NCBI GenBank assembly: GCA_964427405.1
Contig: CAYRUB010000001.1
Coordinates: 157,884 to 221,883 of the forward strand
Length of the DNA stretch: 64,000 bases
From: an uncultured Planctomycetales bacterium
GTDB lineage: Bacteria; Omnitrophota; Gorgyraeia; Gygaellales; Profunditerraquicolaceae
Direction: 5' to 3'
The notes under the pieces are model-generated. The model was not told the DNA's origin. It saw nothing but the letters and a program-made list of their open reading frames with translations, and ran no database searches. Below are positions 2,540-22,687 of the stretch, piece by piece; within the stretch, counting starts at the first letter, position 1; each line of letters starts with the position of its first letter. Made by a program: the position numbers and the translations under genes.

Positions 2540-2559
2540 AGCCGTTACCTCCTTTATTC

Positions 2560-3076: not shown

Positions 3077-3084
3077 ATATCTCC

Positions 3085-3103: not shown

Positions 3104-3150
3104 GTTTCAAATATACACTATACTGCTATTCTTGTCAAGCTTTTTCTTAT

Positions 3151-5155: not shown

Positions 5156-5962
5156 TTAGCTTCCGGCTGGTATTTGCAGGCGTCCTTTCTCTTCCGGGTA
5201 ATTCTTGACGTATTTTGCTATTTTTTCGCAGGAAGAACATATATCAGCTCCATTGCAGACTTCGCAAAAAGGAAGCACTCCCTGGATATTTAAGCCAGCA
5301 GTTTGCTTGCAGGTCTTACATTTGAAAGTTTCACACGCCTGACAAGCCAAATACGGCATACCCATGTGAGGACAATTTTCACAATCAGCTGTTTGGCAAA
5401 ATTCACAGGGATTTTCCTCATCTTCAAATTGTGAAGATGCCTCCGGCAATAGCTCTCTTGTTCTTTCGCTTATCTTTGAAAGATCAATCCCGGGCAGTTC
5501 AATTAATTGAAGCTGAATTTTTATATAGCCAAAACCATTACAGGGGAGTTTTATCCTTTTCGTGGCAATGCTGCCTTTTGCATTAGCGATGACGATGCTA
5601 TAAGTATAGAGATTTCTGGCATGGGCGTCGTCTTGCGATGAATGGAACGCCCCCATATCATGGTGCGAATGGATTATCCCGTCTCCTCCTAATTCCTCTT
5701 TGAATTCGCAGTCAACTGAACCTACTTCCTGCTTTGGGATCTTGAAGCTGGTTATGGTGTTATCTTTCACCCAGAATACCGCGCCCCACTCCTTATCCCC
5801 CATGCGCTGGCTGATATAAGTCCATTGACTCCAGATACTCCAGGGTATATTTAGGGTTTCTTTATGGTCATGGTCGCTGCAAAAGCCGCATTCACCGTAA
5901 TTCTTTATCTTTACATCTAAAATATTGCTTCTCTTTTCTGTAGCTTGCTCTAAAGTAAACAT
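5156..5962 (-). CDS. JAB/JAMM (MPN+) metallopeptidase with C-terminal multi-CxxC zinc ribbons
   Basis: HSHHDMGAFHSSQDD matches the JAMM motif HxHx7Sx2D exactly. The tail carries more than 6 CxxC pairs (CEFC, CENC, CQAC, CKTC, CEVC, CSSC). Confidence 0.8.
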   Translation of the reverse strand: MFTLEQATEKRSNILDVKIKNYGECGFCSDHDHKETLNIPWSIWSQWTYISQRMGDKEWGAVFWVKDNTITSFKIPKQEVGSVDCEFKEELGGDGIIHSHHDMGAFHSSQDDAHARNLYTYSIVIANAKGSIATKRIKLPCNGFGYIKIQLQLIELPGIDLSKISERTRELLPEASSQFEDEENPCEFCQTADCENCPHMGMPYLACQACETFKCKTCKQTAGLNIQGVLPFCEVCNGADICSSCEKIAKYVKNYPEEKGRLQIPAGS

Positions 5963-5963
5963 T

Positions 5964-6890
5964 TTATTTCCCTCCTTTCGCTTTTAGCCATTTTTTAAGG
6001 GCTTCCAACAGTTTTGAATCGGTGATTTCTCCTGTTTCAATCTCACAAATTATCCAGTCATATTCATTATTCTTTGCTTTTTCTTTTATATCTTTTATCT
6101 CATCATCGCTGTAATGTTCATCACAATCAGGGCAGTATCCGTAATCAGAGCCGTCAGGATCAATCCTTGAGCAGTCTTCACAGTAACCATAACTGTCAGG
6201 TATGTGTTCTTCGATGTTATCCAGGATGTTTCCTTCGCCTTCGTTTCTTGCGTCATCTAGGATTTTGGGGCAGATATGAGTTGAGTGCTGGATATGAAGT
6301 TTTCCCAGATCATCCATAAGGCAAAGTTCCTTGTATGCCCTTGAGGATATTCCTGCCGCAGCTGCAAGCACTGCCGGTATTACCCAGGAAGGCGTTACTG
6401 TATAACCCTGTTCTTCTTCTGCATCCTTCAAGGAAAGCGGGAATGTCTTTGAGACATTCAAGATTGTACCGTCATAGCCTATTCTCTGGTAGTTAAGATC
6501 ATTCTTCTTGCAGAAAGCACATATTATCTGCTGGCTTTTTAAATTATCCGTGCAGCAGAATATGTCGCCTCGCAAAATCTGGCAGTCTATTGGCTTTTCA
6601 ATACGTGAATCCTGAATCTCAATCCTTATTCCTTTTCTCACCTGGCAGATGAGTTCTTTCAAGGCTTCCGCTTTCTTTTTGCCGACAGCTTTTTCTTCTA
6701 AGAGAAGCCTGTTCAAGTTGGATACTTCAACTATGTCAGAATCAATTAAAATCAACTCTTCTACTCCTGACATAGCAAGAAGAAGCGCAGTCCAGAAGCC
6801 TGTCCCGCCACAACCGACAATTGAGGCGATTTGCGGAATATTTAAACCTTCTACTAAGTTCTGTCTTTCGTAAATAGCAAGTTCTGGCAT
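5964..6890 (-). CDS. ThiF/MoeB-type E1-like adenylyltransferase
   Basis: IVGCGGTGFWTALLLAMSGVEELILIDSDIVEVSNLNRL is the Rossmann/adenylation motif. C-terminal CEDC...CPDC zinc site. No rhodanese domain. Confidence 0.85.
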   Translation of the reverse strand: MPELAIYERQNLVEGLNIPQIASIVGCGGTGFWTALLLAMSGVEELILIDSDIVEVSNLNRLLLEEKAVGKKKAEALKELICQVRKGIRIEIQDSRIEKPIDCQILRGDIFCCTDNLKSQQIICAFCKKNDLNYQRIGYDGTILNVSKTFPLSLKDAEEEQGYTVTPSWVIPAVLAAAAGISSRAYKELCLMDDLGKLHIQHSTHICPKILDDARNEGEGNILDNIEEHIPDSYGYCEDCSRIDPDGSDYGYCPDCDEHYSDDEIKDIKEKAKNNEYDWIICEIETGEITDSKLLEALKKWLKAKGGK

Positions 6891-6902
6891 ATTTCTTCTC
6901 TC

Positions 6903-7499
6903 CTATATGATTGACTCAATTAAACCCTCATCGCTTAATTCTTTGAATTTGCACAACACATCTTTGTCTTTATTTGACAAAATGTTCCAAAGAGTTGAGT
7001 ATGTCTTAGGCAGGATCACAGTACCCAAAGATTCAAGGTTTATAACCCGGAACGACTTGATTATTTTTAGACAGGCTTCCTTTAAAAGCCCTAAGGATTC
7101 AGGATTAAGGTATTGGATTTCACCGGTGCAGATGGTGTGCCCCTTATCGGTCAATCCAAGATAGTGAAAACCTATCTCCGGTTCTGATACAAAAGCTATA
7201 AAGCAGCCTCTCTGGTCATAGATGCCGTAAATCTTAAAGGGATAGTATTTGATAGGCGTCTTTAGAAAATAGGTTTTATCCTTATAATAAAGCTTGTCTA
7301 TAAGCAGGAGGCCAGAATAGCCCTCTATAAGCATATCGTCTTCCTTTATCATGCAGCTATAGCCTCCGGTAAAGGGAACCGTAAAGATGCCTTCCTTCAG
7401 GCCTTGGACAAATTCCCGCCAAGAGGTATCAATTTTTTCGATAAGGGTTGATTTCTTTTTAGCTTTAACGATCAATTCTGTATCCATCATTGCTTTCAA
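6903..7499 (-). CDS. putative E2-like (UBC-fold) protein
   Basis: 198 aa between the Ubl and E1 genes. HYLGLTDKGHTICTGE resembles the E2 H-x-N...G-x-I-C active-site region. AAAGGAG RBS. The assignment rests on motif and position only. Confidence 0.35.
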   Translation of the reverse strand: MKAMMDTELIVKAKKKSTLIEKIDTSWREFVQGLKEGIFTVPFTGGYSCMIKEDDMLIEGYSGLLLIDKLYYKDKTYFLKTPIKYYPFKIYGIYDQRGCFIAFVSEPEIGFHYLGLTDKGHTICTGEIQYLNPESLGLLKEACLKIIKSFRVINLESLGTVILPKTYSTLWNILSNKDKDVLCKFKELSDEGLIESII

Positions 7500-7560
7500 G
7501 CTCCTTTAAGCTTTAAGAGAGGGAGAAAAAGTTTCTCTCCCTCTCTTTTTAGCTTTTTTT

Positions 7561-7797
7561 CTAGCCGCCTGCTTTGACGTATCTTTCCACTTCGATATCG
7601 TGGCCGTCAAAGGTCGCAGGCAGGTTGTCGGTAGAGGTAACCTCTTCGCCGTCTACCAAGATGGTAAAGGAGTCAATGCCTTTTTCCTGCAAGAGGCGGG
7701 TTAAGGTGTCCTTTACGGCATCGCCCTTTTTTACCTCGAGCTCTTCTCCTGCTATTGTTATCTTTGTCTTTTCGTTTTTCAGTTCGTTTAAGTTCAT
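7561..7797 (-). CDS. ThiS/MoaD-like ubiquitin-like beta-grasp protein ending in Gly-Gly
   Basis: 78 aa. ...ILVDGEEV...FDGHDIEVERYVKAGG* has the typical ThiS/Ubl core and a C-terminal diglycine immediately before the stop. Confidence 0.7.
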   Translation of the reverse strand: MNLNELKNEKTKITIAGEELEVKKGDAVKDTLTRLLQEKGIDSFTILVDGEEVTSTDNLPATFDGHDIEVERYVKAGG

Positions 7798-7855
7798 TTT
7801 GTTCTGTCTTTCTCCCCGTATAGCCGATAGGACAGCTTTTAATTTTTAAATTCTT

Positions 7856-8158
7856 TTAAGCCTGGTAGGCTGCAAGAACCACTTCTTGCAATTCATTTTT
7901 TGCCTCAGGCGTTAAGAATTGGACGGTATCGTAATACTTACCGTCGCCAGCTAAATGGGATGGCATAGCTGCGAACAGCCCGCCCTCTTTTTTAGCCATG
8001 ACCCTGATGCCTTTGATTAAAACCGCGTCAGCGACTTTAATGTCAACAAAGGCCTTCAGGGAGCTTTCGTCTTTTTCGACTTTATAAACTCTGGCCACTT
8101 CAATCATGGTTTTCACCTCCTTTCGATTTGTTTTTTGTTTTGTTTTTACTTGGCTCAT
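7856..8158 (-). CDS. SpoVG-like protein, first gene behind leader copy 2 (starts MSQVK)
   Basis: IRVMAKKEGGLFAAMPSHLAGDGKYYDTVQF resembles the SpoVG core (IRVIDG..GLFVAMPS..DG..RDI..P). The N-terminal 17 aa are an extension that begins with the leader-encoded MSQVK. Confidence 0.55.
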   Translation of the reverse strand: MSQVKTKQKTNRKEVKTMIEVARVYKVEKDESSLKAFVDIKVADAVLIKGIRVMAKKEGGLFAAMPSHLAGDGKYYDTVQFLTPEAKNELQEVVLAAYQA

Positions 8159-8525
8159 GTAAGCCTCCTTTCTTTTGACGCCGGAAATTAAAACCCAAGA
8201 ATATGAAGTATTTTTCCAGGCAGCCCAGAAAAATACGGTCTTTTGTCAAGAAAACATGGAATGCCCGAAGGCAAACGACGCAAGGAGTGAACCTTCCTGG
8301 GAGTCCTTTGGAAAAATTGAGACTCCCCTATAGGGGCAGAATGCTTCTGATAGCTAAAAAGCCTTTCCGAGGCAGACCACGAAAAGGCTTTTTAGATAGA
8401 GATGAATCTTCCCAAAGGATTTTCTTGAAAAAAGTCAGGATTGGGTTATTGTAGGCGGATAAAAAGAAAGGAGGATTACGTGACGACAAGAGAAAACAAA
8501 AGACAAGGAAGGAAGTAACTGATTG
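8159..8525 (-). promoter_or_regulatory. structured ~370-nt leader element, copy 2 (novel)
   Basis: Hairpins at 8208-8236 (GTATTTTTC/GAAAAATAC) and 8356-8393 (AAAAAGCCTTT/AAAGGCTTTTT) carry the conserved TGGNNTGCCT loops. The 5' segment 8462-8474 AAAAAGAAAGGAGG region is complementary to the RBS region 8164-8182. A CCCC-TATA-GGGG hairpin plus T-run lies mid-element. Confidence 0.5.
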
Positions 8526-8712
8526 AAGTAGCGATTAAGGGTAGCTAAAAGATAAAACGGACTGTGAAATTTTTCTTAGCTGAATTAGAAGACCGAAAAA
8601 TATATATATTCTGGGTAGCTGAAATTGAAAGGAAGACATCACCTTGAAAGTTGAAACGATTGAAGAGTTTGTTAAAGCACCAAAGGTAAGACCTGCCGAC
8701 TTACGGATCTAC

Positions 8713-9366
8713 TTATCCTTGAAATTGACTCTGCTTGTACTCAGACTGGAAATATATTAATGGGACTATCCGCATAGCTTCAAGGATCTTTGGTCCGTGG
8801 CATTTTTTAAGCCTTTTTCCCGAATTGCATGGGCATATCTTATCTCGACTATATTCTCCAGAGGCTAATATTTTAAGAAATTTCTGAGCAGCAGTAAAAT
8901 CATTGGTATTAAAGAACTCACAATAAAATTCTATAACCCCTCGTCCATAATGTGAGCGCTCACCAAACGGCATATGGCCTGTTTTTTTATTGAAACAAAA
9001 GGAGAAAAGAAACGGAATCACTAAAAACTCAACAAATCCAATAAGGGTTTTACATTTACTGAATTTTATCCAATTATCTACTGGCGTGCCTAAACATAAT
9101 GTATCGTTTGTGTAATGATGAAAATCGCTCGGTATCCTTCCCCCCATTTCTTTAACTGAGGGCATCAGATCTGGGTAGCTAGACGGGATCGCGATGAATA
9201 ACTCAAAACCATCTTGGATTCTTACTTTTTCGAATTCGGAAGAAAAACCCAGGAAACCAAAAATATAATAATTATCATCGATATGCTTAAGGCTCAAACC
9301 TGTATATTTCTCATGAAGTTCTTGAAATTGTTTCTGAATAATATCGTCATAACCAATACTCGCCAT
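8713..9366 (-). CDS. E2-like protein with C-terminal SEC-C zinc motif (CBASS Cap2-short-like)
   Basis: Start at MASIGYDD (9366), overlapping the CD-NTase stop by about 20 nt. FHHYTNDTLCLG resembles the UBC HPN...C active site. The C-terminal CPCNSGKRLKKCHG is a SEC-C motif. Confidence 0.45.
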   Translation of the reverse strand: MASIGYDDIIQKQFQELHEKYTGLSLKHIDDNYYIFGFLGFSSEFEKVRIQDGFELFIAIPSSYPDLMPSVKEMGGRIPSDFHHYTNDTLCLGTPVDNWIKFSKCKTLIGFVEFLVIPFLFSFCFNKKTGHMPFGERSHYGRGVIEFYCEFFNTNDFTAAQKFLKILASGEYSRDKICPCNSGKRLKKCHGPKILEAMRIVPLIYFQSEYKQSQFQG

Positions 9367-10546
9367 TGCTGCTCCATGGTTTCGAAGGACTAATTTTAAC
9401 CTCAGGGTAAGATTGCGCAGAAGGCGTTTTCTGGTTACTAGTTCTATAGCCACATTTCTCGAGGACCTTCCCCATGGTTTTAATACCGAATATAACACCC
9501 AGGTACTCAATCATATCCTTAGTTGATGTTTTTGTTAGAGCCTCCTGCAAGTCTTTTTTAATCTTTTTCAACCAATCATAAAAGCTTTTCTCAAGCACAG
9601 GATCATCTAACCATTTATCTGCAAAGTTTTCATCTGGTTCAACAGGATTTCTTATAACTGTTTTAGTCCCATTTTTTTCGATATGTTTATCCATATTATC
9701 TACTATACGTATTAATGCATCAGCTAACCCTAATTCATTTTGATACGCGTGCGCCGCCAAGGTGGTTATAATCATCGAAGTCGGCTTGATCTTAAAATCT
9801 TTTTCGAACATAATATCACGGTGCCGCTTAAGAAGCTGAATAGTTTTCTGTAAGGGAGTTCTAACTTTGTAAACAGGAACGGCTTCTATTGAAGCATATA
9901 AGCGCTTTTCAAGAAGAGATATAGCCCCTTTCTCAAAAATGGTTCTCATTCTAAACTTGAACCATTCTGCATACCCCTTAGGATTAGTTTTTAACCAATT
10001 ATCGTCAATACGATCATAATTACCCAATGTATTATCGGTAAGACAAATACTTGTCTGCAGTAAATTCTCCCTTATTCCTGATTCAAGCAAATGTTTTTTG
10101 TAGGGCACATCTTGCTCTGGAATAGAAGCTAAAAAATCCATATGGAAATGAACATCATCTTCATATTCAATTCTCCAGCAACGTCTTTTATTCTCGGGCT
10201 TACTCTTCATATTTTTAGCAAGAGAGTAATCAGTTAACTCCTTACCGATTTTTTCCTTTAAGTCTTTTTGTGAAATCTCATTTTTAAGATAATTTAAACA
10301 ACATACCAAGTCAATATCATATCTGTCTTCTTCTGATGCAGGTCTAACTGTAGTTCCCAAAAGAAATGAACCTTGCGTATATATTTCAGGATTTCGATCT
10401 TTTAATGATGTACTCTCCTGTAACCACTTTGTTACCGATTCATATCGAAGTCTCGCTTCTTCAAATTGAGAATCGGAAATCTTTAAGGAATCCGCATATT
10501 TCTCTAATACATCATCCAATAATGTCATGCGATTATCTTGCATCAT
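9347..10546 (-). CDS. cGAS/DncV-like nucleotidyltransferase (CD-NTase) of a CBASS system
   Basis: QGSFLLGTTVRPASEEDRYDIDLV gives the GS...hDhD nucleotidyltransferase active site. A third acidic residue lies at HMDF. 399 aa. Confidence 0.8.
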   Translation of the reverse strand: MMQDNRMTLLDDVLEKYADSLKISDSQFEEARLRYESVTKWLQESTSLKDRNPEIYTQGSFLLGTTVRPASEEDRYDIDLVCCLNYLKNEISQKDLKEKIGKELTDYSLAKNMKSKPENKRRCWRIEYEDDVHFHMDFLASIPEQDVPYKKHLLESGIRENLLQTSICLTDNTLGNYDRIDDNWLKTNPKGYAEWFKFRMRTIFEKGAISLLEKRLYASIEAVPVYKVRTPLQKTIQLLKRHRDIMFEKDFKIKPTSMIITTLAAHAYQNELGLADALIRIVDNMDKHIEKNGTKTVIRNPVEPDENFADKWLDDPVLEKSFYDWLKKIKKDLQEALTKTSTKDMIEYLGVIFGIKTMGKVLEKCGYRTSNQKTPSAQSYPEVKISPSKPWSSNGEYWL

Positions 10547-10547
10547 T

Positions 10548-11483
10548 CTAACCTCCTGTGTTATAATCCAAGAATTCTTGGATTTTTTGTGAATTATTTG
10601 TAAAATCTTTTTCTGCTAAAAAGACTAAGTTATTGTACTCATTAGGATCATCTAACTTTAAAGGTTTAGCTGATTTAAAATTAATTCTTAATACCTGATT
10701 TTCCTCAAATAAAAGCTTAAGCATGTTGGTAGTTGTTTGAGACTGCAAGCTAAGAAGCATACCAATAAATTTTTGTCGACCCCACCTTGCCAAGAATCCC
10801 CATCCTAAGAACTTTTTCCACCATCGGTCTGACTGCGAATAGAAATTTTCCCCTTCGCCTGTGCCAATTGACAAAATCATTAGATTATTTATATTCTGAC
10901 CAAGACGACGCTTAGCTTCAATAGCCGCAATAAGAGCCGGATTATTTGCCCATAATCCTCCATCTGCTAAAAGAAAATTATCCATATAATAAGGATCAAA
11001 ATAGGTAGGGGCGGAACAAGAAGCCAATACTGCTTTATAGACTAGTCTATTAGGATCACGAGAAAAATTTTTATCGTACGAAGATTTAAACACATGAACG
11101 CAGCCATTCCCGATATCAGATGCAGGCAAAACTAAAGGTATGTCAATTTGGCCTAGCTTTCGATCATCACCATAGAGATTTCTTAAGATGTTTTCTAAAT
11201 CCTTATTATCATATCTGCTCACGAATAATCCAAACCAATGAAGAAATCGCTTCTTGAAGATCCGTTGACCATATTCCTTATAAAAATCTAATACTTTACT
11301 CGCAGTAAAGTTACAAGCTAATGATGCCGCGATGATTGCTCCTGTACTAGTTCCGGCTATTAGATTAAAACTTTTTAACCAATCAACACTATATTCTTCC
11401 TCAATGCGTTTTAATATATAAGCTGCATAAACACCACGATAACCACCACCGTCGATTGCTAAAATTTTAAATATTTTATCCAT
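10548..11483 (-). CDS. patatin-like phospholipase (CapV-type CBASS effector)
   Basis: DGGGYRG oxyanion motif, GTSTG nucleophile elbow and DGG catalytic Asp. Sits directly upstream of, and 2 nt from, the CD-NTase. Confidence 0.85.
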   Translation of the reverse strand: MDKIFKILAIDGGGYRGVYAAYILKRIEEEYSVDWLKSFNLIAGTSTGAIIAASLACNFTASKVLDFYKEYGQRIFKKRFLHWFGLFVSRYDNKDLENILRNLYGDDRKLGQIDIPLVLPASDIGNGCVHVFKSSYDKNFSRDPNRLVYKAVLASCSAPTYFDPYYMDNFLLADGGLWANNPALIAAIEAKRRLGQNINNLMILSIGTGEGENFYSQSDRWWKKFLGWGFLARWGRQKFIGMLLSLQSQTTTNMLKLLFEENQVLRINFKSAKPLKLDDPNEYNNLVFLAEKDFTNNSQKIQEFLDYNTGG

Positions 11484-11558
11484 AGATAGTCTTTATTAAT
11501 TTTTTAATTGTTTCTTCTGTCCTCTTCAGGTGTCTTTTCGGTATCACCAATAGGTTGT

Positions 11559-12551
11559 TTATTCGTACCTTATTTCTGTCCCCCGCAAGGTACCGTCCGT
11601 TGTTATAATAATATGATCATCTCCTGAGGTTTTTTCAGAAGATTTATTTTGGTCGTCTCTGTCTGTCCTATAAATATTTACACCCCTGCTTTCATATCTC
11701 TTGATTACAGTTTTGTCAGGAAGCAATGTTCCTGAGAATTTCTTATTGCCGGCACATATTATTCCATACCTAGGTGAAACAGCATCAATAAAAGCATTCG
11801 TGCTTGCACTTTCACTTCCGTAATGACCTGCCTTGAGAAATGTGCTTTTTAATTTGCCATCATATTCTTCAACCATTTCCTTCTCTACGAATTTTAGGAC
11901 ATTGGGGGAATCTTTCCTTAGCTTACCTTCAGAATCACCAACAAGCAAAAAGCTTACCTCGCCATATCTAAGCCATATCACTATTGATGAATTATTGGGC
12001 TTATCTGCATGCCCATCTGAATGTAATACCCTAACTTCAAATTCAGAACCCCAGTTAAGACTATCCCCTTCTTTCTTTATTAAGGTACCCACTAATGGCT
12101 TGTAGTAGTGACAATCTTTCTCTTGCTGAGCTAACTTACAAAAAGTCTTTTTGTATAATCTTGATTTTCCATTATAACCGGGATCAAGAATTGCCTTTAT
12201 TTGATACGCTTGAATAACAGGTATTAACCCTCCAACATGATCGGCATCACAATGAGTCATAATCATCAAATCTATAGGCTTGTTTTTCTTTATCCCATGA
12301 CTTTCAAGATAAGGGATAATTACTCTTTTGCCCTCTATTCCTTCGCCTCCGTCTATTAGGATTATCTCACCTTCATATTTCCCATTGCCTTTTATGCCGT
12401 CATCGGGAGTTTGAATCAAAATACAGTCACCATGGCCTACGTCTATAAACGTTACCTTAAGGGGAGTCTGGGCGTAGAGGAAAGAAGAACATAGCAGCGT
12501 GAAATAAAAAACAAAAATCTTAATTTTATGCTTTTTTATAAATATAACCAT
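11559..12551 (-). CDS. secreted metallo-beta-lactamase-fold hydrolase (ComEC C-terminal-domain-like)
   Basis: Signal peptide, DVGHGDCILI and MTHCDADHVGG MBL motifs. Confidence 0.65.
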   Translation of the reverse strand: MVIFIKKHKIKIFVFYFTLLCSSFLYAQTPLKVTFIDVGHGDCILIQTPDDGIKGNGKYEGEIILIDGGEGIEGKRVIIPYLESHGIKKNKPIDLMIMTHCDADHVGGLIPVIQAYQIKAILDPGYNGKSRLYKKTFCKLAQQEKDCHYYKPLVGTLIKKEGDSLNWGSEFEVRVLHSDGHADKPNNSSIVIWLRYGEVSFLLVGDSEGKLRKDSPNVLKFVEKEMVEEYDGKLKSTFLKAGHYGSESASTNAFIDAVSPRYGIICAGNKKFSGTLLPDKTVIKRYESRGVNIYRTDRDDQNKSSEKTSGDDHIIITTDGTLRGTEIRYE

Positions 12552-13377
12552 AGTTACATTTTGGCTTTTCTAATGGAAAACCCATTAATATGCTCACAAT
12601 CTTGAGTATCGTTCTAGGATCAAGCGTTATGCCGTCCTTTCCTGTGTGTGTAGCTCCCCCTATCTCAAGGATTTCCACCTTGCTTTTATAAAGATCAGAG
12701 TCTAAGTCTTTTTTGCTTAGTCTTGCGCTCTTCATAACCGCCTGATCCACCGTACCCATGAAACAATAAAGCTCTTTAACTCTATCCAAGAGTTTCTTTC
12801 TTATTTCAGGCTGATTTGCATACTTAATAGGCATCTGGTCAGGATCCAGGTTCACGCATTGCATTGCATGATGCGGCGAATAATCTTTGAATATAGGACC
12901 TATTTCTCCTAGCTCGCTGCCTTGATGCGGTGTTGCGACAGTAATCAAGCTGTTGATTTTCAAAAGAGGAGGAGTATCATCAATTATGGCCGCAACAGAA
13001 TCTAAACCGCCCATGCTGTGCCCTATCAAATCAAACTCCTTGCTCTTTCCTATCTTAGAGAAGATTTTACTTCGAAGAACAGGTCCGAAATCAAGGAAAC
13101 TCTTGCACCCCCCAGATTCCTCTTCAGAGAAAGTTATGTATTCGGCAGAATCGCAGTTTGTGAATATCTCTGAAAACCTTTCTTTTGCAGAAATCCCCAA
13201 TTTCTTGTCAGTGGTAGTCCACCAAGTGTTATTCTCATCAGTCCAGCCCGGTACAAAGAAAACGGGTCTTTTCAAAGTTAATTTTTCCTGCGTAAACTGC
13301 GTCAGTCTATTTAAAGCGTTCTGTTTTTGCTTTTTTCTTTCTTCTATCATTTCTTGTACTGGACCTGTGGTAGACAT
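12526..13377 (-). CDS. alpha/beta-hydrolase lipase/esterase
   Basis: VFFVPGW...GHSMGG nucleophile elbow. 283 aa. Confidence 0.6.
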   Translation of the reverse strand: MSTTGPVQEMIEERKKQKQNALNRLTQFTQEKLTLKRPVFFVPGWTDENNTWWTTTDKKLGISAKERFSEIFTNCDSAEYITFSEEESGGCKSFLDFGPVLRSKIFSKIGKSKEFDLIGHSMGGLDSVAAIIDDTPPLLKINSLITVATPHQGSELGEIGPIFKDYSPHHAMQCVNLDPDQMPIKYANQPEIRKKLLDRVKELYCFMGTVDQAVMKSARLSKKDLDSDLYKSKVEILEIGGATHTGKDGITLDPRTILKIVSILMGFPLEKPKCNYGYIYKKA

Positions 13378-13434
13378 GGAAACTCCTTTCTTTTGTTATG
13401 AAAACAACTGTTCTCAAAACAAATTGTTAAAGCT

Positions 13435-13677
13435 TTAATGCTTTTTATCTCTTGGTGGACAAGAATCGTTACCTGGAGGAACCGTATCGCTGTCTCGAAT
13501 CGGCCCCTTTGGGCTATGTATTTTTACTTCACCTCCACCACTGTTCGCCGACATCTTTTTCGCTGCTTTCTCAGCCTCTGCCTGCGTATCATAATAACCG
13601 GCAACACGATCGGACTTTTCTCGCTTTGCACGCCAGTCACCAGAATCCTTGTCTTTTGAAACGTGATAATTTGCCAT
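13435..13677 (-). CDS. DUF2188-like small protein
   Basis: MANYHVSKDKDSGDWRAKREKSDRVAGYYDTQAEAEKAAKKM has the DUF2188 pattern. Confidence 0.45.
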   Translation of the reverse strand: MANYHVSKDKDSGDWRAKREKSDRVAGYYDTQAEAEKAAKKMSANSGGGEVKIHSPKGPIRDSDTVPPGNDSCPPRDKKH

Positions 13678-13681
13678 TTAT

Positions 13682-14317
13682 TTACTCCTTCCTTAAATTA
13701 GGTATAGTTGCTATAACAACACCTTGAATCTGAAAATCATCAGTTAAAATAATTGGTTTGTTTTTTTTATTGGAAGATTTTGGCTTTAAAATAATCATAT
13801 TGGGAGCGAGGTGAAACTCTTTAATTGTCGCCTCGCCATCAATTAATGCAACAACTTTATCTCCTTCATTAGCTGTTGGCTGCTGTCTAACTAACACAAG
13901 ATCGCCTTCATTAATTCCTGCTTTATCCATCGAATCTCCTCGCGCATGCAATAGATAATATTTTGCCCCTGGCTTTGCGAGAGAAGTAGAAACAGAAATA
14001 AACCCTTCTATATTTTCTTCTGCCAACATTGGTGCCCCACAAGCTACAACGCCAACCAAAGGAATATTAATGGTTTGAGCATGCATAGAACCAAGATCTG
14101 GATTCAAAACGAGGTGATAATCTCCGTCTTCAAGCTTTTTTATCACACCTTTTTCTTGAAGTTGCTCAAGAATAACCTGAATTGACCGGGGTGATTTGTA
14201 ACCAAGATCAACCATCAATTCCCTAATAGAAGGAGCTCGAGAACGATGCATAAGCCAATTTCTAATATGACGGATAGCCTCGATTTGCCTTTTTGTAAAC
14301 GTATTTTCGTTCTTCAT
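13682..14317 (-). CDS. lexA: LexA repressor (S24 self-cleaving peptidase)
   Basis: N-terminal wHTH, VVACG cleavage-site-like motif, ARGDSM and GDLVLV...K catalytic Ser/Lys motifs. Confidence 0.85.
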   Translation of the reverse strand: MKNENTFTKRQIEAIRHIRNWLMHRSRAPSIRELMVDLGYKSPRSIQVILEQLQEKGVIKKLEDGDYHLVLNPDLGSMHAQTINIPLVGVVACGAPMLAEENIEGFISVSTSLAKPGAKYYLLHARGDSMDKAGINEGDLVLVRQQPTANEGDKVVALIDGEATIKEFHLAPNMIILKPKSSNKKNKPIILTDDFQIQGVVIATIPNLRKE

Positions 14318-14353
14318 ACATACAAGTGTATACTACCGTATGTATTTTGTCAA
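14316..14353 (-). promoter_or_regulatory. lexA promoter with overlapping inverted repeat (candidate SOS operator), leaderless start
   Basis: Minus strand TTGACA(14353-14348)-17 nt-TACACT(14330-14325), then ATG 7 nt later. ATACATAC-N14-GTATGTAT inverted repeat (14316-14345) overlaps the -10 and the start codon. Confidence 0.4.
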
Positions 14354-14667
14354 GTAAAACAAACACCCAACAGAAGCAATATCGTTTGAATTATATTTGA
14401 TAGAATTATTTAGTTTAATAAAATTCGCTTCTAGTAATGCAGACTTGGGGATAGGCGTAAATAACTATACTCTCAGTTCGCAGAAGATAAAGTCTATACT
14501 AAGCCTTACTCTTAAGACTGCTACAAACCGAACAATGATTTTGTAACCTTGCTACTTCTTCATTATAAGCTTTTCTAAATTCAGGATTCTTTAAAGACTC
14601 TTCATCGATATGCTGGCTTACTGTTTTGGGAATCATTCTTTTTCTTTTTTTAGATTGTGGTTGCATC

Positions 14668-15408
14668 TTATCCAGCAAGATTACGTTCAATCTCTGCTAT
14701 TAGTATCTTTGGAAACCCCTTTATAATCATATGCTGATTGACAGGAAGAAAGGTTTTAAGCTCTTGTCTGAAATCAATCCTCCCGGATTTGACAACCTTT
14801 AGAATCTTTGCCTTTAATTGTTTATCCTGTATAAATACTTCCTTAAAGGCCATGCGGCTACGAAGAATAAAATAAAGATCGTAGAAATCCCGCGCCTTTT
14901 GGCGCGTAAGACAGGCTTGGATTTTTTCGGTAATAAGAATCTCTTCTTTAAGATGAATAAGCGTATAGGACACAACAAGGTCGGATTGGATGAGTGCCGC
15001 TGCCCCTAACCCCTTTTTACCAGGCCGTAAAGAAACCTCTACTTGAATCCGGCTTTTATACTCACTAGTATTAAACTGGAATATAGCGAGGTATCCGCCG
15101 GATGTACTTTTTGACTCAATAATCTCAGTTTGGATACCTTCCATTTCTATCTTAGTAAGGGCTCCTTCCATTAGGGTTTCGATACCTTTGATCGTAATAT
15201 TTACTCCGGTAAAATCTAAATCTTCCGAGAACCGCGGACTCTGCCAAATGATCCGCAATGCAGTGCCTCCCTTAAAAAGCAGACTATCGGAACCCTTTTC
15301 CTGATAAAGCCGAGAAAGAAACAGCTGCTGAAAATATTCCCGCACGACATTATCTATTGTCGTCTGCCATGTTTGAGCTAACTTTTGAACTTGTCTTTTT
15401 TCAATCAT
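14668..15408 (-). CDS. AbiEii/AbiGii-family nucleotidyltransferase toxin (type IV TA), possibly C-terminally truncated
   Basis: LFKGGTALRIIW...SEDLDF motifs. At 246 aa it is short for the family. Confidence 0.7.
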   Translation of the reverse strand: MIEKRQVQKLAQTWQTTIDNVVREYFQQLFLSRLYQEKGSDSLLFKGGTALRIIWQSPRFSEDLDFTGVNITIKGIETLMEGALTKIEMEGIQTEIIESKSTSGGYLAIFQFNTSEYKSRIQVEVSLRPGKKGLGAAALIQSDLVVSYTLIHLKEEILITEKIQACLTRQKARDFYDLYFILRSRMAFKEVFIQDKQLKAKILKVVKSGRIDFRQELKTFLPVNQHMIIKGFPKILIAEIERNLAG

Positions 15409-15998
15409 AAGATATCCTTAACCAGTTTTATCAAGCCCTTTTTGCCAAAAAGTTTTGCATATTCTATTACAGATTTTTTCTTTATGTCGCGGACATTAAG
15501 ACGCTCATTAAGAGTTTTTCGATTAAGACTAACAAAATAAAGGTAATCTGCGAGGGCCTTTTCCGGTTCGGCCATAAGAACAGTCATATCCCCTATCTTC
15601 TCTGTTCTATAGCCGCGATAAGCTGGTTTTTTAATGTGTGAATAAGTAAAAGACTTATTATTAACAACAAATTCCCGGGTAATCCGGGTTGTCACTGATG
15701 TTATTGTGTAAGCGAATTCAGGAATAATGCCATAATGGGAGAGGGCGTATTCAAAAGAGATGTAACTAGGCGCATAAAGCCTATTGGCAATAGCTTCATC
15801 TCTTGGCTGGTCAATTCTTAACGCATAAAGCCCATTTCTTACTTTAAGAAAAAGGTCATCGCAGTGATCCTTAATAAACTCCTGCGTCGCACGCAAAGAG
15901 ACACCAAAAACTCTCTGGAAGTCCGATGGAGAAAACAAACGGACTCCTTTCGCCTGAAGATGCTGCTGGACATATATTGGTTTAAGTTTTCGCTCCAT
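15405..15998 (-). CDS. AbiEi-family antitoxin/transcriptional regulator
   Basis: 197 aa, 4-nt overlap with the toxin gene. N-terminal wHTH-like region typical of AbiEi partners. Confidence 0.65.
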   Translation of the reverse strand: MERKLKPIYVQQHLQAKGVRLFSPSDFQRVFGVSLRATQEFIKDHCDDLFLKVRNGLYALRIDQPRDEAIANRLYAPSYISFEYALSHYGIIPEFAYTITSVTTRITREFVVNNKSFTYSHIKKPAYRGYRTEKIGDMTVLMAEPEKALADYLYFVSLNRKTLNERLNVRDIKKKSVIEYAKLFGKKGLIKLVKDIL

Positions 15999-16075
15999 AT
16001 GACGCTAAATGTTAAATGGGTATCTGGAGCGATTATACCTCATCTTTTGAGTTATGCAAGCCTTTTTTGGGTCAT

Positions 16076-17502
16076 TGTCAAGCCAAAATAGAAATGTCCG
16101 GTTCTTACCAAAATAGAAATGTCCGGTTTTAAACCTTTACCAAAAGAGCTTCATGCTGCGCGCTCTGCCGCAATCGCAGAGCCTCATACATCTGCCGTTT
16201 AAAGGGATGATCCATGGGCGGACGGTACATTTCCCGTTTTATCGGCTTAGATTCCCGTTCGATCACCGGCTTAATGGTAATCGGCTTATACGTCAAATAG
16301 CGATTATTGCCAAAAATCAACATGGTACCGTCAATACGCTCTTCAAGAATAACCTTGCGGCCGGGATTCCTGTCTTTAATCTGGTACAGCTTCTTTTTGT
16401 AAGCAATGGTAAAGTCATTACGGACTACCCTCTCGGTCTTAATACACAAGATTGTATTTAAATTGATGCCCGCCGGTACCGGCCGGTGCATATCTGTTGA
16501 GTCTGCCGGAAGCACGGCAAACCGCTTATTATGCTTCGGCCAGTAACTCTTTAAGAACATATTGGCCTCGGGTATAGACTTAATCCCCGCTAATCGCAGC
16601 TCTTTAACCAGGCGATCCTGATCCGTCTTAAAAGAACGCTCGATCCTGCCTTTGGCAGGAGCTGAATGCGCATGGATTACTCGTATATCCAGCTCCCCGC
16701 ATGCCCTCTCAAACTGGCTAAGATTGAACCGATTATTCAACTCATCTTCTATCGTTTGCCTCTGCCGGCCTGTATATGTTGAATGCCGATCAACGCGTAT
16801 ATGCTTTGCGGCAAGCCGTTCTCTTTAATATAATCCAATAACCCCGCAAACGCAGGCAGTGTTCCTTCGTGTTTATAAAAAGATCCACTCTTGTTACTTG
16901 TGGCATCGTCAATATACCCCATAAGAACACACTCCTCTGCCCTGCCTTCAAGCCAGGGATGATGCGATCCGTCCATCTGCAGCATCTCTCCGCGGTAATG
17001 TTTTCGCTCCCGCCAATGCCGATATTTGCGTGAGGCCCGTTTGCGTTGCCACAATCCTTCTGCAATAAGCTTCTTGCGTAACGTCTCGTCGCTTATCGTA
17101 ATCTTGTGCCGTTCAAAGAGCTTCTCAGAGGCAAACGTCGGCCCAAAATCGCGGTATATCCTCCGGTATAGACTCAGGATCTTCTCCCATGCCCTGCTGG
17201 TTATCCGCCGTTTGGATGCCTTCCCGCGCAATCCATGCACCAAACCTTTTTCGCCTTCGGCTCGATAATGCACCGTAAGCCGCCGTATCTGACGCTCACT
17301 CAAGCTAAGTTGCTCACCGGCTTCTTTTTGTGTCAAAGAACGTTCTAAAACTTTACGTATAATATGTACCCGATTCAGTTCCTTCTGGCTCATCTGTACA
17401 ATGTCCTCTCCCATGCTTAACCTCCCTTAAGAAGGTTACCATGGTTTTGTTAACAGGACATTCTTACTTTGGCCAAATAGGACATTATCACTTTGGTATT
17501 AC
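16076..17502 (-). mobile_element. ISNCY-like insertion sequence flanked by 17-bp direct repeats
   Basis: Flanking direct repeats AGCCTTTTTTGGGTCAT at 16059-16075 and 17503-17519. Each end carries two tandem ~21-nt repeats (CCAAAATAGAAATGTCCGGTT x2 at left; inverted CCAAAGTGATAATGTCCTATT / CCAAAGTAAGAATGTCCTGTT at right). Confidence 0.7.
16129..17414 (-). pseudogene. DDE transposase (HTH + integrase core) split by a frameshift into 221-aa and 203-aa ORFs
   Basis: N-terminal part 16749-17414 (MSQKELNRVHIIRKV... HTH). C-terminal part 16129-16740 (integrase-core-like). The parts are in different frames and would join to about 430 aa. Confidence 0.5.
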
Positions 17503-17531
17503 AGCCTTTTTTGGGTCATCGCAGGAGTTGT

Positions 17532-18821
17532 TCATTCCTCCTCTCCCTTACTTTCAGATACGGGTAGATACATCTCCTGCTTATCCTGCTTTTCAGTAGT
17601 TTCATCGAAATACGAAGTAGTACCGTCATCGTTTATAATGGTGTTGAGTTTCTCTTTCTCTGATTCTGATAAGATACCAGACATGGCTTCGTTGTAGTCT
17701 TTGTAGATCTGTCTTTCCTCTTTAAATCTTTCTAACTTTTCCTTCAGGTAATCATAATCCCTCTCAAACACGCCTCTCTGCACATCATCCAATCCTGGCG
17801 CGCGCATAGCTTCCAACAGGTCATCCATTGCCTGCCTGCATTGAGATATAGTTTTAAAATAAGCTATGTCAGAAGATAGCTTGGAAACAGCAATATATTG
17901 TTTTGCCTTAGGCATTAAGGTGATGTTTCTGATCTGCTCTTCTGTCACCGGGTTATTAGGCAAAGATAGCTCTTTTAAAGAGTCATTAGATAATGTTTTT
18001 GAATTCAAGTATCCATCCGTAAGGGAAAACAGCTTATTAGAGGTATCAGTTCTAAACTCATCGTTTACTTTGTAAATGGATTTTTCTCCCTTATTGTTTT
18101 CAATCTGGGATGCAGTAATTGTGGTTTCACCTACCACTGACTTAACAAAATCTTTCCTGTCATCAGGGATACTTATCTTTTTAAAGATATCGGAAAGCAC
18201 ATTAATCTTACCTCCCTGTGCCAAGGGAATGCCTTCGGCATTCTTCAGGAAGGCAAAAGGGTCTTTATTTTCTTTGCAAGCTTTAAGAGCGTTGTCTATA
18301 TCCAAACCCGTACCGACCTTTTCTTTAACACACTCACTTTCGCTTTTCTTCCTTAGCTTATCCATGTATTCACCGGCTGCCTTCTCGATGTCTTCGCACT
18401 GGGCATACCTTAAGCCTAAGCGCATATTTGTCATGGCATTAAAATGCTTGATGATATCAGCTAAAGTCGGTGAAACATACTCCAATAATAGCATGGGCGC
18501 AGCTGCCATGGCTTCGCTGGAGATACCTTTCATATAATCCGCCAGAATCTGCTCTGAAAGTACGCTATTAAAGCTTGAGGCAAGGTCAAAACCGCTGCAT
18601 CCTTTTGAGCCGCTAAGAATAGAATAACCTACTCCCGGCTCATCAGGCGGGACATTAGGATGATAATCAATACCTCCGCGGTAATAGAATCCGGTCCTAT
18701 CTTCGGAAATAGCGCTATCAATGGTATAAAGGCTAGAGGCATCATCTTTAGAGAAGATATCGGCATAGCTTATATGTGTTAGAGCCAAAATGAGAATTAA
18801 TAATATTAGGACTTTCTTCAT
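17532..18821 (-). CDS. traH: TraH-like F-type conjugative pilus assembly protein
   Basis: Signal peptide, about 430 aa, C-terminal coiled coil. Sits at the TraH position in an F-like gene order. Confidence 0.45.
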   Translation of the reverse strand: MKKVLILLILILALTHISYADIFSKDDASSLYTIDSAISEDRTGFYYRGGIDYHPNVPPDEPGVGYSILSGSKGCSGFDLASSFNSVLSEQILADYMKGISSEAMAAAPMLLLEYVSPTLADIIKHFNAMTNMRLGLRYAQCEDIEKAAGEYMDKLRKKSESECVKEKVGTGLDIDNALKACKENKDPFAFLKNAEGIPLAQGGKINVLSDIFKKISIPDDRKDFVKSVVGETTITASQIENNKGEKSIYKVNDEFRTDTSNKLFSLTDGYLNSKTLSNDSLKELSLPNNPVTEEQIRNITLMPKAKQYIAVSKLSSDIAYFKTISQCRQAMDDLLEAMRAPGLDDVQRGVFERDYDYLKEKLERFKEERQIYKDYNEAMSGILSESEKEKLNTIINDDGTTSYFDETTEKQDKQEMYLPVSESKGEEE

Positions 18822-20979: not shown

Positions 20980-21807
20980 TTATGAGATTTTCATAATGAA
21001 GCAAAGGGCGTAATACGGCGGCAGTATGTTATGCGGCTGACCTCCACCCATGCTGCTGGTATTTGAAACTTGTGTTCCAGTACATAAAGGAGAACTGTGT
21101 CCATCATACCTGCTGTAGAATGTAGGTTCATTGTAAGCATGTGAATGTGCAGGCATCTCAACAATAGTTAAGATATGTTTTGCCTCTCCTCCAATCTTAG
21201 TTAATGAACCGGAAACATTCGTCATTGAAATACCACCTGAATCCTGCCTTGCTCCCACCACAAACCTGTCCCTTAAATCAGGGGTGCCATTCGTGCCATC
21301 GCAGAGCTGCCAGCCTGCAGGTATGGAAGCAACAGTACCTGGCCAGATAACGATTGAACCTATGGGGAGAGAATTATTTTGACTACCGGGTACAGGCACA
21401 GTGGTGCCGACAATAACGCCTGATACAGAAGTAGTAGGCAGGTCTCTTGCCACAAGATTAGTCCACTCTTGGGGCACAGTGGTTGATACCGTAAAAGCGC
21501 TTGTGTTTGAGGAAATAGTGTAAGCATTCTGCCAGGGATTAAAAGCACTCCAAGAAGGATTTAAGTATCCTGCGTTTTGTAAAACCTGGATACTCGCGGG
21601 CCAGGCGTTGTTAGTTGCGTAATACGATAATGCCGCCTGCTCTATTGTTGACATCTCAAGAGCAGTCTTTTCCCCAGCTTTAATCTGCATTCTTTTAATA
21701 AAGACAGGCGTAATGGATGAGGTTAGAATGACCAAAACCCCAAGAGCAATACAGAGCTCAATAAGGGAAAAACCCTTTTTATTGTTTATAGATGTATTTT
21801 TTCTCAT
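20980..21807 (-). CDS. prepilin-type N-terminus fused to phage tail-collar (MdpB-like) domain
   Basis: KKGFSLIELCIALGVLVIL is a class III signal with a methylation motif. C-terminal WPGTVASIPAGWQLCDGTNGTPDLRDRFVVGA is the tail-collar signature. Confidence 0.6.
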   Translation of the reverse strand: MRKNTSINNKKGFSLIELCIALGVLVILTSSITPVFIKRMQIKAGEKTALEMSTIEQAALSYYATNNAWPASIQVLQNAGYLNPSWSAFNPWQNAYTISSNTSAFTVSTTVPQEWTNLVARDLPTTSVSGVIVGTTVPVPGSQNNSLPIGSIVIWPGTVASIPAGWQLCDGTNGTPDLRDRFVVGARQDSGGISMTNVSGSLTKIGGEAKHILTIVEMPAHSHAYNEPTFYSRYDGHSSPLCTGTQVSNTSSMGGGQPHNILPPYYALCFIMKIS

Positions 21808-22252
21808 ACTTTAATTTCCAGGTTATTGATTCTAATGACTTAGTAACACTCACTAAATCGTTATTGCCTTGGTTTACCACCACAATTTCGCTACCGTAAC
21901 CTTTAGAGGTGATCAGGCCTTTTGGCAGAAGTGTAGATACCGAAACACTTGATGTGTTGGAGGTAATTATATAAGCATTACCAAAAGGATTAACATCGCA
22001 TGCCTCTTGCACCAGATAGCTGGGGCGTAGGTCGAATAAACTCACCGGCCACGCCCCACGCTCGCTGTAGAATCTCGTGCTTGCCAAAGCTATTGAATCC
22101 AGTTCTTCAAGCGCTCTTATGCCTGAAGCAACCTGGCGTATTTTTGCCGCAGAACAAAACACTGCGGAAATAAATACCCCTGCCAGCATAAGCACAAGGC
22201 TCAGTTCGACTAAACTAAATCCCCTCCTCCTTTTTAAAACGTTATCGTCCAT
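21779..22252 (-). CDS. pseudopilin (prepilin-type N-terminal cleavage/methylation domain)
   Basis: RRGFSLVELSLVLMLAGV prepilin motif. Confidence 0.6.
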   Translation of the reverse strand: MDDNVLKRRRGFSLVELSLVLMLAGVFISAVFCSAAKIRQVASGIRALEELDSIALASTRFYSERGAWPVSLFDLRPSYLVQEACDVNPFGNAYIITSNTSSVSVSTLLPKGLITSKGYGSEIVVVNQGNNDLVSVTKSLESITWKLKYEKKYIYKQ

Positions 22253-22668: not shown

Positions 22669-22687
22669 TGCTCTCACCTCCTTTCTC

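Follow-up and report, generated by a model that had tools for sequence, protein, structure and literature searches.

A LexA-family gene in a 64,000-nucleotide (nt) stretch of DNA from an uncultured Omnitrophota bacterium (contig CAYRUB010000001.1, positions 157,884 to 221,883; the whole stretch is called 'the window' below) stands at the head of a compact series of seven co-directional genes that ends in a cyclic oligonucleotide-based anti-phage signalling system (CBASS). We consider it moderately probable, from comparison of sequences, that its product is a local, autoregulated and probably RecA-cleavable repressor of this defence operon, encoded on a portable cassette. The evidence comes from the domains and catalytic residues of the protein, the anatomy of its promoter and operator, the co-variation between operator and protein, the edges of the cassette, the recurrent order of lexA followed by defence genes in related loci, and the location of the gene on an island. 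The original prediction, made from the letters of the stretch, had set lexA downstream of the CBASS genes, but in the direction of transcription it lies upstream of them.

The LexA-family protein

The prediction of a LexA-family gene at 13682-14353 was borne out by both expected Pfam domains, a winged helix-turn-helix (wHTH) LexA_DNA_bind domain at residues 6-61 (PF01726; 43.5 bits against a cut-off of 23.7) and Peptidase_S24 (PF00717; 92.6 bits against a cut-off of 23.3), and by a full-length alignment to the structure of Escherichia coli LexA (7b5g; E 2.4e-24, starting at residue 4). The open reading frame (ORF) starts with ATG. In this alignment, Cys93-Gly94 of the window protein corresponds to the cleavage site Ala84-Gly85 of E. 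coli LexA, and Ser129 and Lys166 correspond to the catalytic dyad Ser119 and Lys156. The Gly, Ser and Lys were invariant in all 121 sequences compared (the window protein and 120 database homologues), and the residue before the cleavage-site Gly was Cys in 95 and Ala in 26 of them. The bond cleaved in UmuD is likewise Cys-Gly. With dyad and cleavage site present, the residues needed for RecA-stimulated self-cleavage appear to be complete, and by every sequence-level criterion the protein belongs to the LexA family.

The window protein, of which approximately 3,700 homologues were counted, was approximately 33-38% identical to LexA of cultured bacteria. Its closer homologues (50-80% identity), which are named 'transcriptional repressor LexA' in their sources, came from Omnitrophota, Gammaproteobacteria, Nitrospirota, Planctomycetes, Bacteroidota, Acidobacteriota, Zixibacteria, Ignavibacteria, WOR-3, Patescibacteria and a Methanobacterium-labelled bin, a spread that does not follow taxonomy. 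Searches of plasmid and phage proteins gave ordinary LexA only (at most 38% identity), IMG/VR contributed only two contigs (52% identity), and no DNA nearly identical to positions 12000-16000 was found in a plasmid collection. By these searches, the LexA clade is not known from cultured plasmids or phages.

The promoter and the predicted operator

A crude consensus scan placed a promoter, TTGACA-17-TACACT, directly before lexA, with 10 of 12 consensus matches; in close relatives (L051, L053 and L001; related loci are numbered with an L) TACAAT stands where the window has TACACT. As the ORF contains no in-frame ATG, GTG or TTG upstream of the start codon, and no Shine-Dalgarno (SD) sequence precedes it, a leaderless mRNA would be forced if this promoter is used. 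The promoter is covered by the palindrome ATACATAC-N14-GTATGTAT, which has no mismatches and no second match in the window, even when three mismatches are allowed (0.12 expected). The original prediction of a leaderless promoter under a palindrome thus stood as far as the promoter, the layout and the uniqueness of the palindrome are concerned. The outer 8+8 arms, which had been taken for the operator, did not emerge as the conserved element: as judged from related promoters, the conserved operator unit is a pair of overlapping 14-base-pair (bp) boxes of a 5-N4-5 layout, box A lying 10 bp (one helical turn) upstream of box B with a 4-bp overlap.

Approximately 130 related loci were collected (47 from species-representative genomes, 78 from metagenomes and several by exact-protein look-up), and 83 non-identical upstream regions of full-length homologues with at least 45% identity were compared. 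Fifty-eight of the 83 regions had TTGAC at 33-41 nt upstream of the start codon (background 1%), and only 4 of these 58 had an SD-like tetramer, which makes the leaderless layout a trait of the family. The core ATAC-N4-GTAT was present with at most one mismatch in 52 regions (against a background of 2.1%) and exactly in 25 (0.27%); measured from the ATG, its positions had a main peak at -14/-13 and a secondary cluster at -23 to -28. The closest clade has the consensus TTGACA-N9-CATAC-N5-yATACA-N3/4-GTATG(T)-ATG, in which the left half-site of box A, CATAC, is kept.

A perfect 5-N4-5 palindrome was found at the position of box B in 20% of the 83 regions (2.3% of shuffles), for example CATAC-AATT-GTATG in L051 and L053. 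The two arms change together (CATAC/GTATG, TATAC/GTATA, GGTAC/GTACC), and the start of the recognition helix reads KS(V/I)KS in the GGTAC/GTACC loci and KSPRS in all (C/T)ATAC loci. This co-variation of helix and half-site is the best available sign that LexA binds box B. A direct-repeat reading (GTAT-N6/7-GTAT) was equally enriched, because the GTATAC core is self-complementary. The palindrome is nevertheless the preferred reading of these sequences, since co-variation links its two arms and since the GGTAC/GTACC subclade contains one palindrome and lacks the repeat. As the boxes are conserved, fixed in position and co-varying with the protein, autoregulation of lexA through a promoter-overlapping palindromic operator is predicted.

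Range of action

When the window was scanned for ATAC-N4-GTAT, GTAT-N6-GTAT, YATAC-N4-GTATR and CATAC-N5-YATAC, the lexA promoter alone stood out. Both exact YATAC-N4-GTATR boxes of the window are at this promoter; there were none elsewhere, and the six one-mismatch matches (approximately four expected) were all inside genes. The search for further boxes in the island, which the original prediction had proposed, therefore yielded none in 64 kb besides those at lexA, and its suggestion that LexA could tie transfer to the SOS response was not supported, as no operator-like site above chance was seen near the tra, pilus or relaxase genes or anywhere else in the window. Related loci totalling 1.19 Mb held 48 exact ATAC-N4-GTAT sites; lexA promoters accounted for 33 of these, and the other 15 occurred at chance density. 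Further boxes above chance level were seen neither in the window, which holds no repair genes, nor in these 1.19 Mb. Confinement of the operators to lexA promoters is what would be expected of a regulator that acts locally, on its own operon.

A portable promoter-lexA-DUF2188 cassette

The promoter, lexA, the following DUF2188 gene and a short 3' flank recur as a block of nucleotide homology in L049 and L050 (92% identity), L114 (83%) and L056 (77%). The upstream limit of this homology is exactly 14353, the base with which the -35 hexamer opens, and the downstream limit lies between 13391 and 13436, just past the DUF2188 stop codon. What follows differs: in L049, where LexA is 94% identical, the order is lexA-DUF2188-patatin-cGAS/DncV-like nucleotidyltransferase (CD-NTase), with a patatin of 29% identity and a CD-NTase of a different clade; L114 has hydrolase-patatin-CD-NTase-E2 with protein identities of 22-43% (hydrolase 29%); and in L056 the CD-NTase gene precedes the patatin gene. 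By nucleotide and protein comparison, the promoter-lexA-DUF2188 cassette thus appears before unrelated CBASS operons.

DUF2188 was the first gene after lexA in approximately 20 related loci, and DUF3892 directly follows lexA in L051 and L052. Loci were also collected in the opposite direction, starting from DUF2188 homologues. Among these, lexA-DUF2188 preceded a ThsB-TIR operon on a Patescibacteria contig and, at another locus, a gene for a DUF8370/DUF8371 protein and a helicase gene, both flanked by large serine recombinases; at a third, lexA headed a type IIG restriction-modification operon and DUF2188 was located approximately 4.4 kb further downstream. DUF2188 has approximately 1,350 homologues, and its identity was 71-88% among the best 120 clusters. 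The protein was usually more conserved than its partner LexA (in L132, for example, 78% against 36%) and was not bound to one type of cargo.

Genes downstream of lexA in related loci

At nearly all loci, genes on the same strand follow lexA at short distance. A CD-NTase, patatin or E2 gene was part of the co-directional run after lexA at 18 loci, with gaps of -4 to 170 nt, and the tightest lexA-CBASS gaps were -4 nt (L086) and +4 nt (L014). Cargo was counted at the 53 loci with a full-length lexA and at least 2.5 kb of downstream sequence: 11 had CBASS, seven methylase/DUF6602 genes (restriction-modification-like), six genes for metallo-beta-lactamase-fold (MBL) proteins and two recA, while the remaining 27 were unclassified. 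Pfam matches among 123 downstream proteins were SMODS (12), AGS_C (6), Patatin (5), N6_N4_Mtase (5), DUF6602, ThiF and Lactamase_B (4 each), C5 and D12 methylases (3 each), and HORMA, SAVED and RecA (2 each); PADLOC cyclase models gave 12 matches. CD-NTases were accordingly the commonest downstream genes, followed by DNA methylases. CBASS is present in roughly a tenth of genomes, and its presence at a fifth of the loci represents a very large enrichment.

At three loci with homologues of 48-50% identity and the same promoter style (L025, L108 and L026, Gracilibacteria, the last with a shorter downstream flank) lexA is joined to recA. These lexA-recA(-superoxide dismutase) operons, on Gracilibacteria-like contigs, have a leaderless TTGACA promoter in which GTGTAT repeats are spaced at 11 and 10 bp, and are probably the ordinary SOS ancestors of the mobile clade.

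Other associations were observed among the relatives. Behind lexA(-DUF2188), MBL genes matching LmuA, RTasMBL and PDC-M48B models are found repeatedly, accompanied by an unannotated family of approximately 241 amino acids (aa), in L010, L077, L058, L065 and L082, and may constitute an undescribed MBL-based defence set; in the window the partner of the MBL gene is an alpha/beta hydrolase instead (11559-13377). L004 (PLXT01000031.1, from the Methanobacterium sp.-labelled bin) carries lexA, a 462-aa protein, a CD-NTase and a C5 methylase behind a bacterial-type TTGACA promoter with the operator GGTAC-N4-ATACC, and is either a mis-binned contig or a transferred bacterial cassette. In L133, an Omnitrophica defence island, a pair of HTH_19 and Peptidase_M78 genes (8061-9043; CapH/CapP- or ImmR/ImmA-like) lies a few genes from a lexA-headed restriction-modification operon, so that both types of regulator co-occur in one island.

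Organisation of the gene run in the window

The seven genes, the sites around the promoter and the neighbouring genes are listed in Table 1. The three distal genes, encoding a CD-NTase, a patatin effector and an E2 protein, make up a CBASS of type II-short (E2). The E2 ORF could be extended to a TTG at 9510, and the corresponding gene call in L048 is 217 aa. The first hairpin with a 13-bp stem comes after the seventh gene, and a further hairpin with a T-run was noted by eye at approximately 8355-8393; the only other terminator-like site that the scan lists between the promoter and 8236 is a weak one inside the CD-NTase gene (9882-9895, minus strand). The AU-rich hairpin between DUF2188 and the hydrolase gene lacks a U-run and is thus not a canonical terminator. 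It is also present in L049 (1190-1225), where the DNA homology to the window stops at its 3' foot, and its role may be that of an attenuator, of a structure at the mRNA end or of a recombination joint. The original prediction had also placed lexA next to AbiEi/AbiEii; these genes are indeed neighbours on the same strand, but they form a separate unit upstream of lexA.

Table 1. Positions of genes, sites and other features around lexA in the window
Feature	Position	Strand	Description
lexA	13682..14317	-	wHTH and S24 peptidase, 211 aa
DUF2188 gene	13435..13677	-	80 aa; 4 nt after lexA; PADLOC candidate PDC-S16 (7e-17)
Alpha/beta-hydrolase gene	12526..13377	-	283 aa; 57-nt gap after DUF2188; own SD AAAGGAG
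MBL gene	11559..12551	-	330 aa; 26-nt overlap with hydrolase gene; LmuA, RTasMBL and PDC-M48B models
Patatin-like phospholipase gene	10548..11483	-	CBASS effector (CapV type); 75-nt gap; 2.2e-90
CD-NTase gene	9347..10546	-	CBASS cyclase; 1-nt gap; 8.6e-129; Pfam SMODS, DncV-like NTFase
E2-like gene	8713..9366	-	CBASS; overlaps CD-NTase gene; E2 model 1e-82
Terminator-like hairpin	8208..8236	-	13-bp stem; first of that stem length after the seven-gene run
AU-rich hairpin	13392..13423	-	DUF2188-hydrolase spacer; z = -2.8; no U-run
AbiEi	15405..15998	-	Pfam/PADLOC
AbiEii	14668..15408	-	Pfam/PADLOC; 315-nt spacer to lexA unit
-35 hexamer TTGACA	14348..14353	-	consensus promoter scan; also upstream edge of conserved cassette
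-10 hexamer TACACT	14325..14330	-	17-nt spacer from -35; 7 nt (TGTATGT) before ATG at 14317
Palindrome ATACATAC-N14-GTATGTAT	14316..14345		30 bp; outer envelope of boxes A and B
Box B	14319..14332		proximal predicted operator, TATAC-ACTT-GTATG on minus strand; spans -10 hexamer, ends 1 nt before ATG
Box A	14329..14342		distal predicted box, CATAC-GGTA-GTATA on minus strand; exact YATAC-N4-GTATR, in promoter spacer
Cassette	13391..14353	-	promoter/operator, lexA, DUF2188 and short 3' flank, approximately 0.95 kb; nucleotide homology

The island and its surroundings

The location of lexA inside a mobile island, as originally proposed, agrees with the comparison to a syntenic relative. Housekeeping genes (purC, phosphoenolpyruvate carboxykinase (PEPCK), thioredoxin reductase, ackA and pta) occupy 42.4-64 kb of the window, and an F-like conjugation set (TraH, TraF, TraU, TraC, TrbI, TraE, TraL, coupling protein, Replic_Relax and TraG_N) occupies 17.5-41.2 kb. 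The PEPCK of the window is 76-93% identical to proteins named Candidatus Omnitrophica/Omnitrophota, which makes the host a member of the Omnitrophota. The relative L138 (PEPCK 91% identical) has the same gene order up to a GDSL lipase gene, followed by a MiaB-like radical-SAM gene, miaA, hflX and hrcA, and has no conjugation genes. Homology between the two DNAs ends at 41355, approximately 60 nt into the MiaB-like gene of L138, and miaA, hflX and hrcA are missing from the window. This break, together with the island-free L138, indicates that at least 41 kb were inserted into an Omnitrophota chromosome, directly behind the GDSL lipase gene. The lexA gene is approximately 27 kb inside the island, the left end of which lies beyond position 1. 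The GC content was 35-39% over 8-16 kb, against 41.5% overall. A tRNA scan of the window gave no tRNA, and hence no tRNA attachment site; a direct-repeat search of 2500-43000 gave no convincing pair of attachment sites, no integrase was found among the ORFs tested in the window, and an Rfam scan of 7500-17600 (E of at most 0.1) gave no match.

Alternative explanations

Several observations weigh against a local repressor of the defence operon. Two kilobases, with the hydrolase and MBL genes, separate the cassette from the CBASS genes in the window, and a weak promoter or an attenuator might be concealed in the gaps of 57 and 75 nt and the AU-rich hairpin. Downstream genes were unclassified at 27 of 53 related loci, and the distant relatives in lexA-recA operons mean that the family also holds ordinary SOS regulators. 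Expression, binding and cleavage are predictions from sequence comparison, and, the host genome being known here as a 64-kb window, a wider regulon or status as the sole lexA is possible. Finally, a transcriptome survey of E. coli reported that expression of defence systems correlates negatively with that of recA (bioRxiv 10.64898/2025.12.14.694197), so that SOS induction of defence is not a general rule. The main alternative is that lexA-DUF2188 is a closed two-gene unit, in which LexA regulates itself and DUF2188 alone, DUF2188 is the regulated product (for example a small defence or stress protein acting as a single gene) and the hydrolase, MBL and CBASS genes are mere defence-island neighbours on promoter(s) of their own. 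Such a unit would fit a conserved DNA block that ends right after DUF2188, the structured hairpin at this point, the good SD of the hydrolase gene after a 57-nt gap, and a DUF2188 that is a single-gene candidate in PADLOC, is more conserved than LexA and is not cargo-specific. The hairpin has no U-run, however, neither the 57-nt nor the 75-nt gap contains a consensus promoter on the minus strand, and defence cargo accompanies lexA far too often for adjacency by chance. Moreover, in many relatives without DUF2188 (L086, L014 and L111) a CD-NTase or methylase gene lies -4 to +15 nt from the lexA stop codon, a spacing which implies co-transcription. On these grounds a closed unit appears unlikely.

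The local repressor also has to be set against regulators of wider or different scope. That the protein is the general SOS repressor of the host, possibly its only LexA, in an incidental defence neighbourhood, would agree with its canonical architecture and catalytic residues, with the name given to its homologues, with the distant members in lexA-recA operons under the same leaderless style of promoter, and with a search of the host genome that covered the 64-kb window only. This is made improbable by the position of the gene, some 27 kb within an island that is absent from a close relative, by 50-80% identical homologues that are scattered against taxonomy, by a cassette that moves as a sharp-edged unit, and by operators confined to lexA promoters in the 1.19 Mb of flanking sequence. 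As an S24 repressor encoded within a conjugative element, beside transfer genes, LexA might instead maintain the island, keeping transfer and excision genes off until SOS induction, for which SetR of SXT is a known precedent (review PMC9578287). Here, though, no operator-like site was located near the tra, pilus or relaxase genes (one-mismatch matches occurred at chance, inside genes), lexA is situated among cargo genes and transcribed away from the tra block, and the relatives are not linked to conjugation genes; we regard a SetR-like role as very improbable. Little probability is likewise given to a damage-blind controller of establishment or dosage, which like the C proteins of restriction-modification systems would allow a burst of expression on entry and a low level afterwards. 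In its favour, lexA heads restriction-modification operons, where C proteins sit, in at least 7 of the 53 loci, its strong consensus-like promoter has an overlapping operator, and a leaderless start is generally known to work across phyla. The cleavage site and the Ser-Lys dyad are nevertheless invariant in 121 sequences, a conservation that would serve no purpose if self-cleavage were unused. Control of this kind is compatible with a local, cleavable repressor and does not exclude it.

Proposed mechanism and significance

If the protein is the local, cleavable repressor proposed above, a LexA dimer would sit on box B, over the -10 hexamer and the transcription start, with a second dimer probably on box A, and occupancy of the operator would shut off its own strong leaderless promoter. 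As this promoter heads lexA, DUF2188, hydrolase, MBL, patatin, CD-NTase and E2, the abortive-infection CBASS and the other genes would be kept at a low basal level. RecA filaments on single-stranded DNA (ssDNA), arising from DNA damage or phage replication, would be expected to stimulate self-cleavage at Cys93-Gly94 through Ser129/Lys166, whereupon the cleaved LexA would leave the operator and the operon, CBASS included, would be induced. We infer in this way the DNA binding, the RecA-dependent cleavage and its trigger, the transcription from lexA through to CBASS in the window, and a role for DUF2188. The unit of promoter, lexA and DUF2188 (approximately 0.95 kb) would have been recombined before many defence operons in many phyla, and here would be cargo of a conjugative island.

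A broader interpretation can be put forward tentatively, as a possibility that falls short of being probable. The promoter-lexA(-DUF2188) unit would, according to this interpretation, be a third, previously undescribed class of portable regulator of anti-phage operons, beside CapW/BrxR and CapH/CapP, wiring its cargo to RecA-sensed ssDNA. The cargo would include CBASS of types I-III, Thoeris-like TIR, restriction-modification and MBL-based systems in many phyla of mostly uncultured bacteria; a consensus promoter, a leaderless start and a built-in operator would allow the unit to work in very different hosts; and DUF2188 would be a co-factor of the switch (a modulator of cleavage or a sensor of nucleic acids, for example) rather than cargo.

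CBASS kills the cell, which makes the means of quieting it and of switching it on central to bacterial immunity. Two types of regulator are known, CapW/BrxR and CapH/CapP, both pointing to DNA damage as the signal. If the broader interpretation is true, a LexA-fold repressor would be a third, convergent solution, by which immunity is plugged into the classical RecA/LexA circuit. It would also hint that regulatory cassettes can stay functional between distant phyla by means of a consensus promoter and leaderless translation, provide a lead on the function of DUF2188, and serve as a warning that genes annotated as 'transcriptional repressor LexA' in uncultured bacteria often do not encode SOS master regulators.

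Additional observations in the window

A full type IV pilus set is located inside the F-like transfer region (20980-29715), with two N_methyl prepilin-like proteins, T2SSF, a T2SSE ATPase, a T2SSB-like protein and a secretin; it recalls the genes for the thin pilus of IncI plasmids. Two exact 21-bp tandem copies of CCAAAATAGAAATGTCCGGTT (16083-16103 and 16108-16128, 25 bp apart) lie in the space that separates the AbiEi start (15998) from the ORF before it, and could be an autoregulatory operator of AbiEi. Beyond the CBASS genes, a 268-aa JAB-domain protein, a 308-aa ThiF/E1-like protein and an unassigned 198-aa protein (5156-7499) form a separate ubiquitin-like conjugation set, 1.2 kb beyond the E2 gene and with a SpoVG-like gene (7856-8158) between; ThiF genes also recur downstream of lexA homologues in L015, L024, L081, L117 and L118. 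The ThiF/JAB block is bracketed by an imperfect direct repeat of approximately 290 bp (4316-4600 and 8138-8433, 3822 bp apart, 80-96% identity), which may mark the boundaries of cargo modules. Within the repeat are a promoter-like region with TTGACA, a hairpin and an SD, as well as the opening codons (MSQVK...) of two genes, of which the SpoVG-like gene is one. The left end of the window (1166-3537) encodes two Nitro_FeMo-Co domain proteins, a DUF5320 protein, a Fur-family regulator and a DUF6876 protein.

Comparison with known systems

In the full-text literature searched (LexA or S24 together with CBASS or anti-phage), no description of a LexA-family gene heading a CBASS was found, although an earlier description is possible. 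With canonical LexA of E. coli and B. subtilis (LexA/DinR), the window protein shares the two domains, the cleavage site, the Ser-Lys dyad, the length and, by prediction, palindromic autoregulation, and the Gram-positive LexA box CGAAC-N4-GTTCG has the same 5-N4-5 layout (PMC9578287, Table 1). Unlike canonical LexA, the window protein has a (C/T)ATAC half-site, a leaderless mRNA and a location on mobile DNA; most members have Cys-Gly in place of Ala-Gly, operators are present only at their own promoter, and the neighbours are defence rather than repair genes. The LexA motif of Balneolaeota, TTACACATATTTTWTACATA, read as a direct repeat (PMC7739468), has ACATA-type half-sites resembling the ACATAC/GTATGT at the window lexA, and Patescibacteria/Gracilibacteria relatives (48-71% identity), some in lexA-recA operons, share the promoter style. 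The descriptions of the Balneolaeota and Patescibacteria proteins, however, are of chromosomal SOS regulators whose regulons comprise repair and translesion genes, whereas the window protein is encoded on an island with defence genes.

SetR of SXT/R391 and lambda CI are, as is predicted for the window protein, S24-type self-cleaving repressors on mobile elements with a RecA filament as trigger, and the leaderless cI mRNA transcribed from PRM of lambda resembles that of the window lexA. These proteins have a CI-type five-helix HTH, in contrast to the LexA winged helix here, where no operators were seen at transfer genes and the apparent targets are defence cargo. The cargo in the window, with a CD-NTase, a patatin phospholipase and an E2-only Cap2-like protein, is like that of E2-type (type II short) CBASS. 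CapW/BrxR (PMC9122588) is similar in being a transcriptional repressor that acts locally on defence operons, among them CBASS and BREX, and that is responsive to a signal of damage or infection; it differs in having a WYL domain and binding a ligand, while the window protein has no WYL domain by Pfam and is predicted to cleave itself.

The closest parallel in logic is CapH/CapP, which induces CBASS after DNA damage and also adjoins DUF2188 and DUF3892 operons, whose earlier link to defence the report on it cites (bioRxiv 10.1101/2022.04.27.489752). Both arrangements have a repressor that is attached to CBASS and other defence operons and is, in the case of LexA by prediction, removed by proteolysis after damage, and both are associated with DUF2188/DUF3892. 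The original suggestion of a CapH/CapP-type switch for the neighbouring CBASS thus holds in part: the idea of a switch for CBASS is strongly supported, on comparative grounds, by the 18 loci with CBASS genes after lexA and by the cassette before unrelated CBASS operons, but the likeness in type does not extend to the proteins. CapH and CapP are two separate proteins, the former with an XRE-type HTH and the latter a zinc metallopeptidase, whereas the window protein combines a LexA wHTH and an S24 serine peptidase in one polypeptide, in which Pfam found neither Peptidase_M78 nor an XRE HTH, and DUF2188 is not a peptidase family. CapH/CapP is transcribed divergently from the operon it controls, whereas lexA is the co-directional first gene. 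The window LexA is therefore analogous, not homologous, to CapH/CapP, and a canonical LexA fold as a portable switch for CBASS, TIR and restriction-modification systems would be noteworthy, even though its logic parallels that of CapH/CapP.

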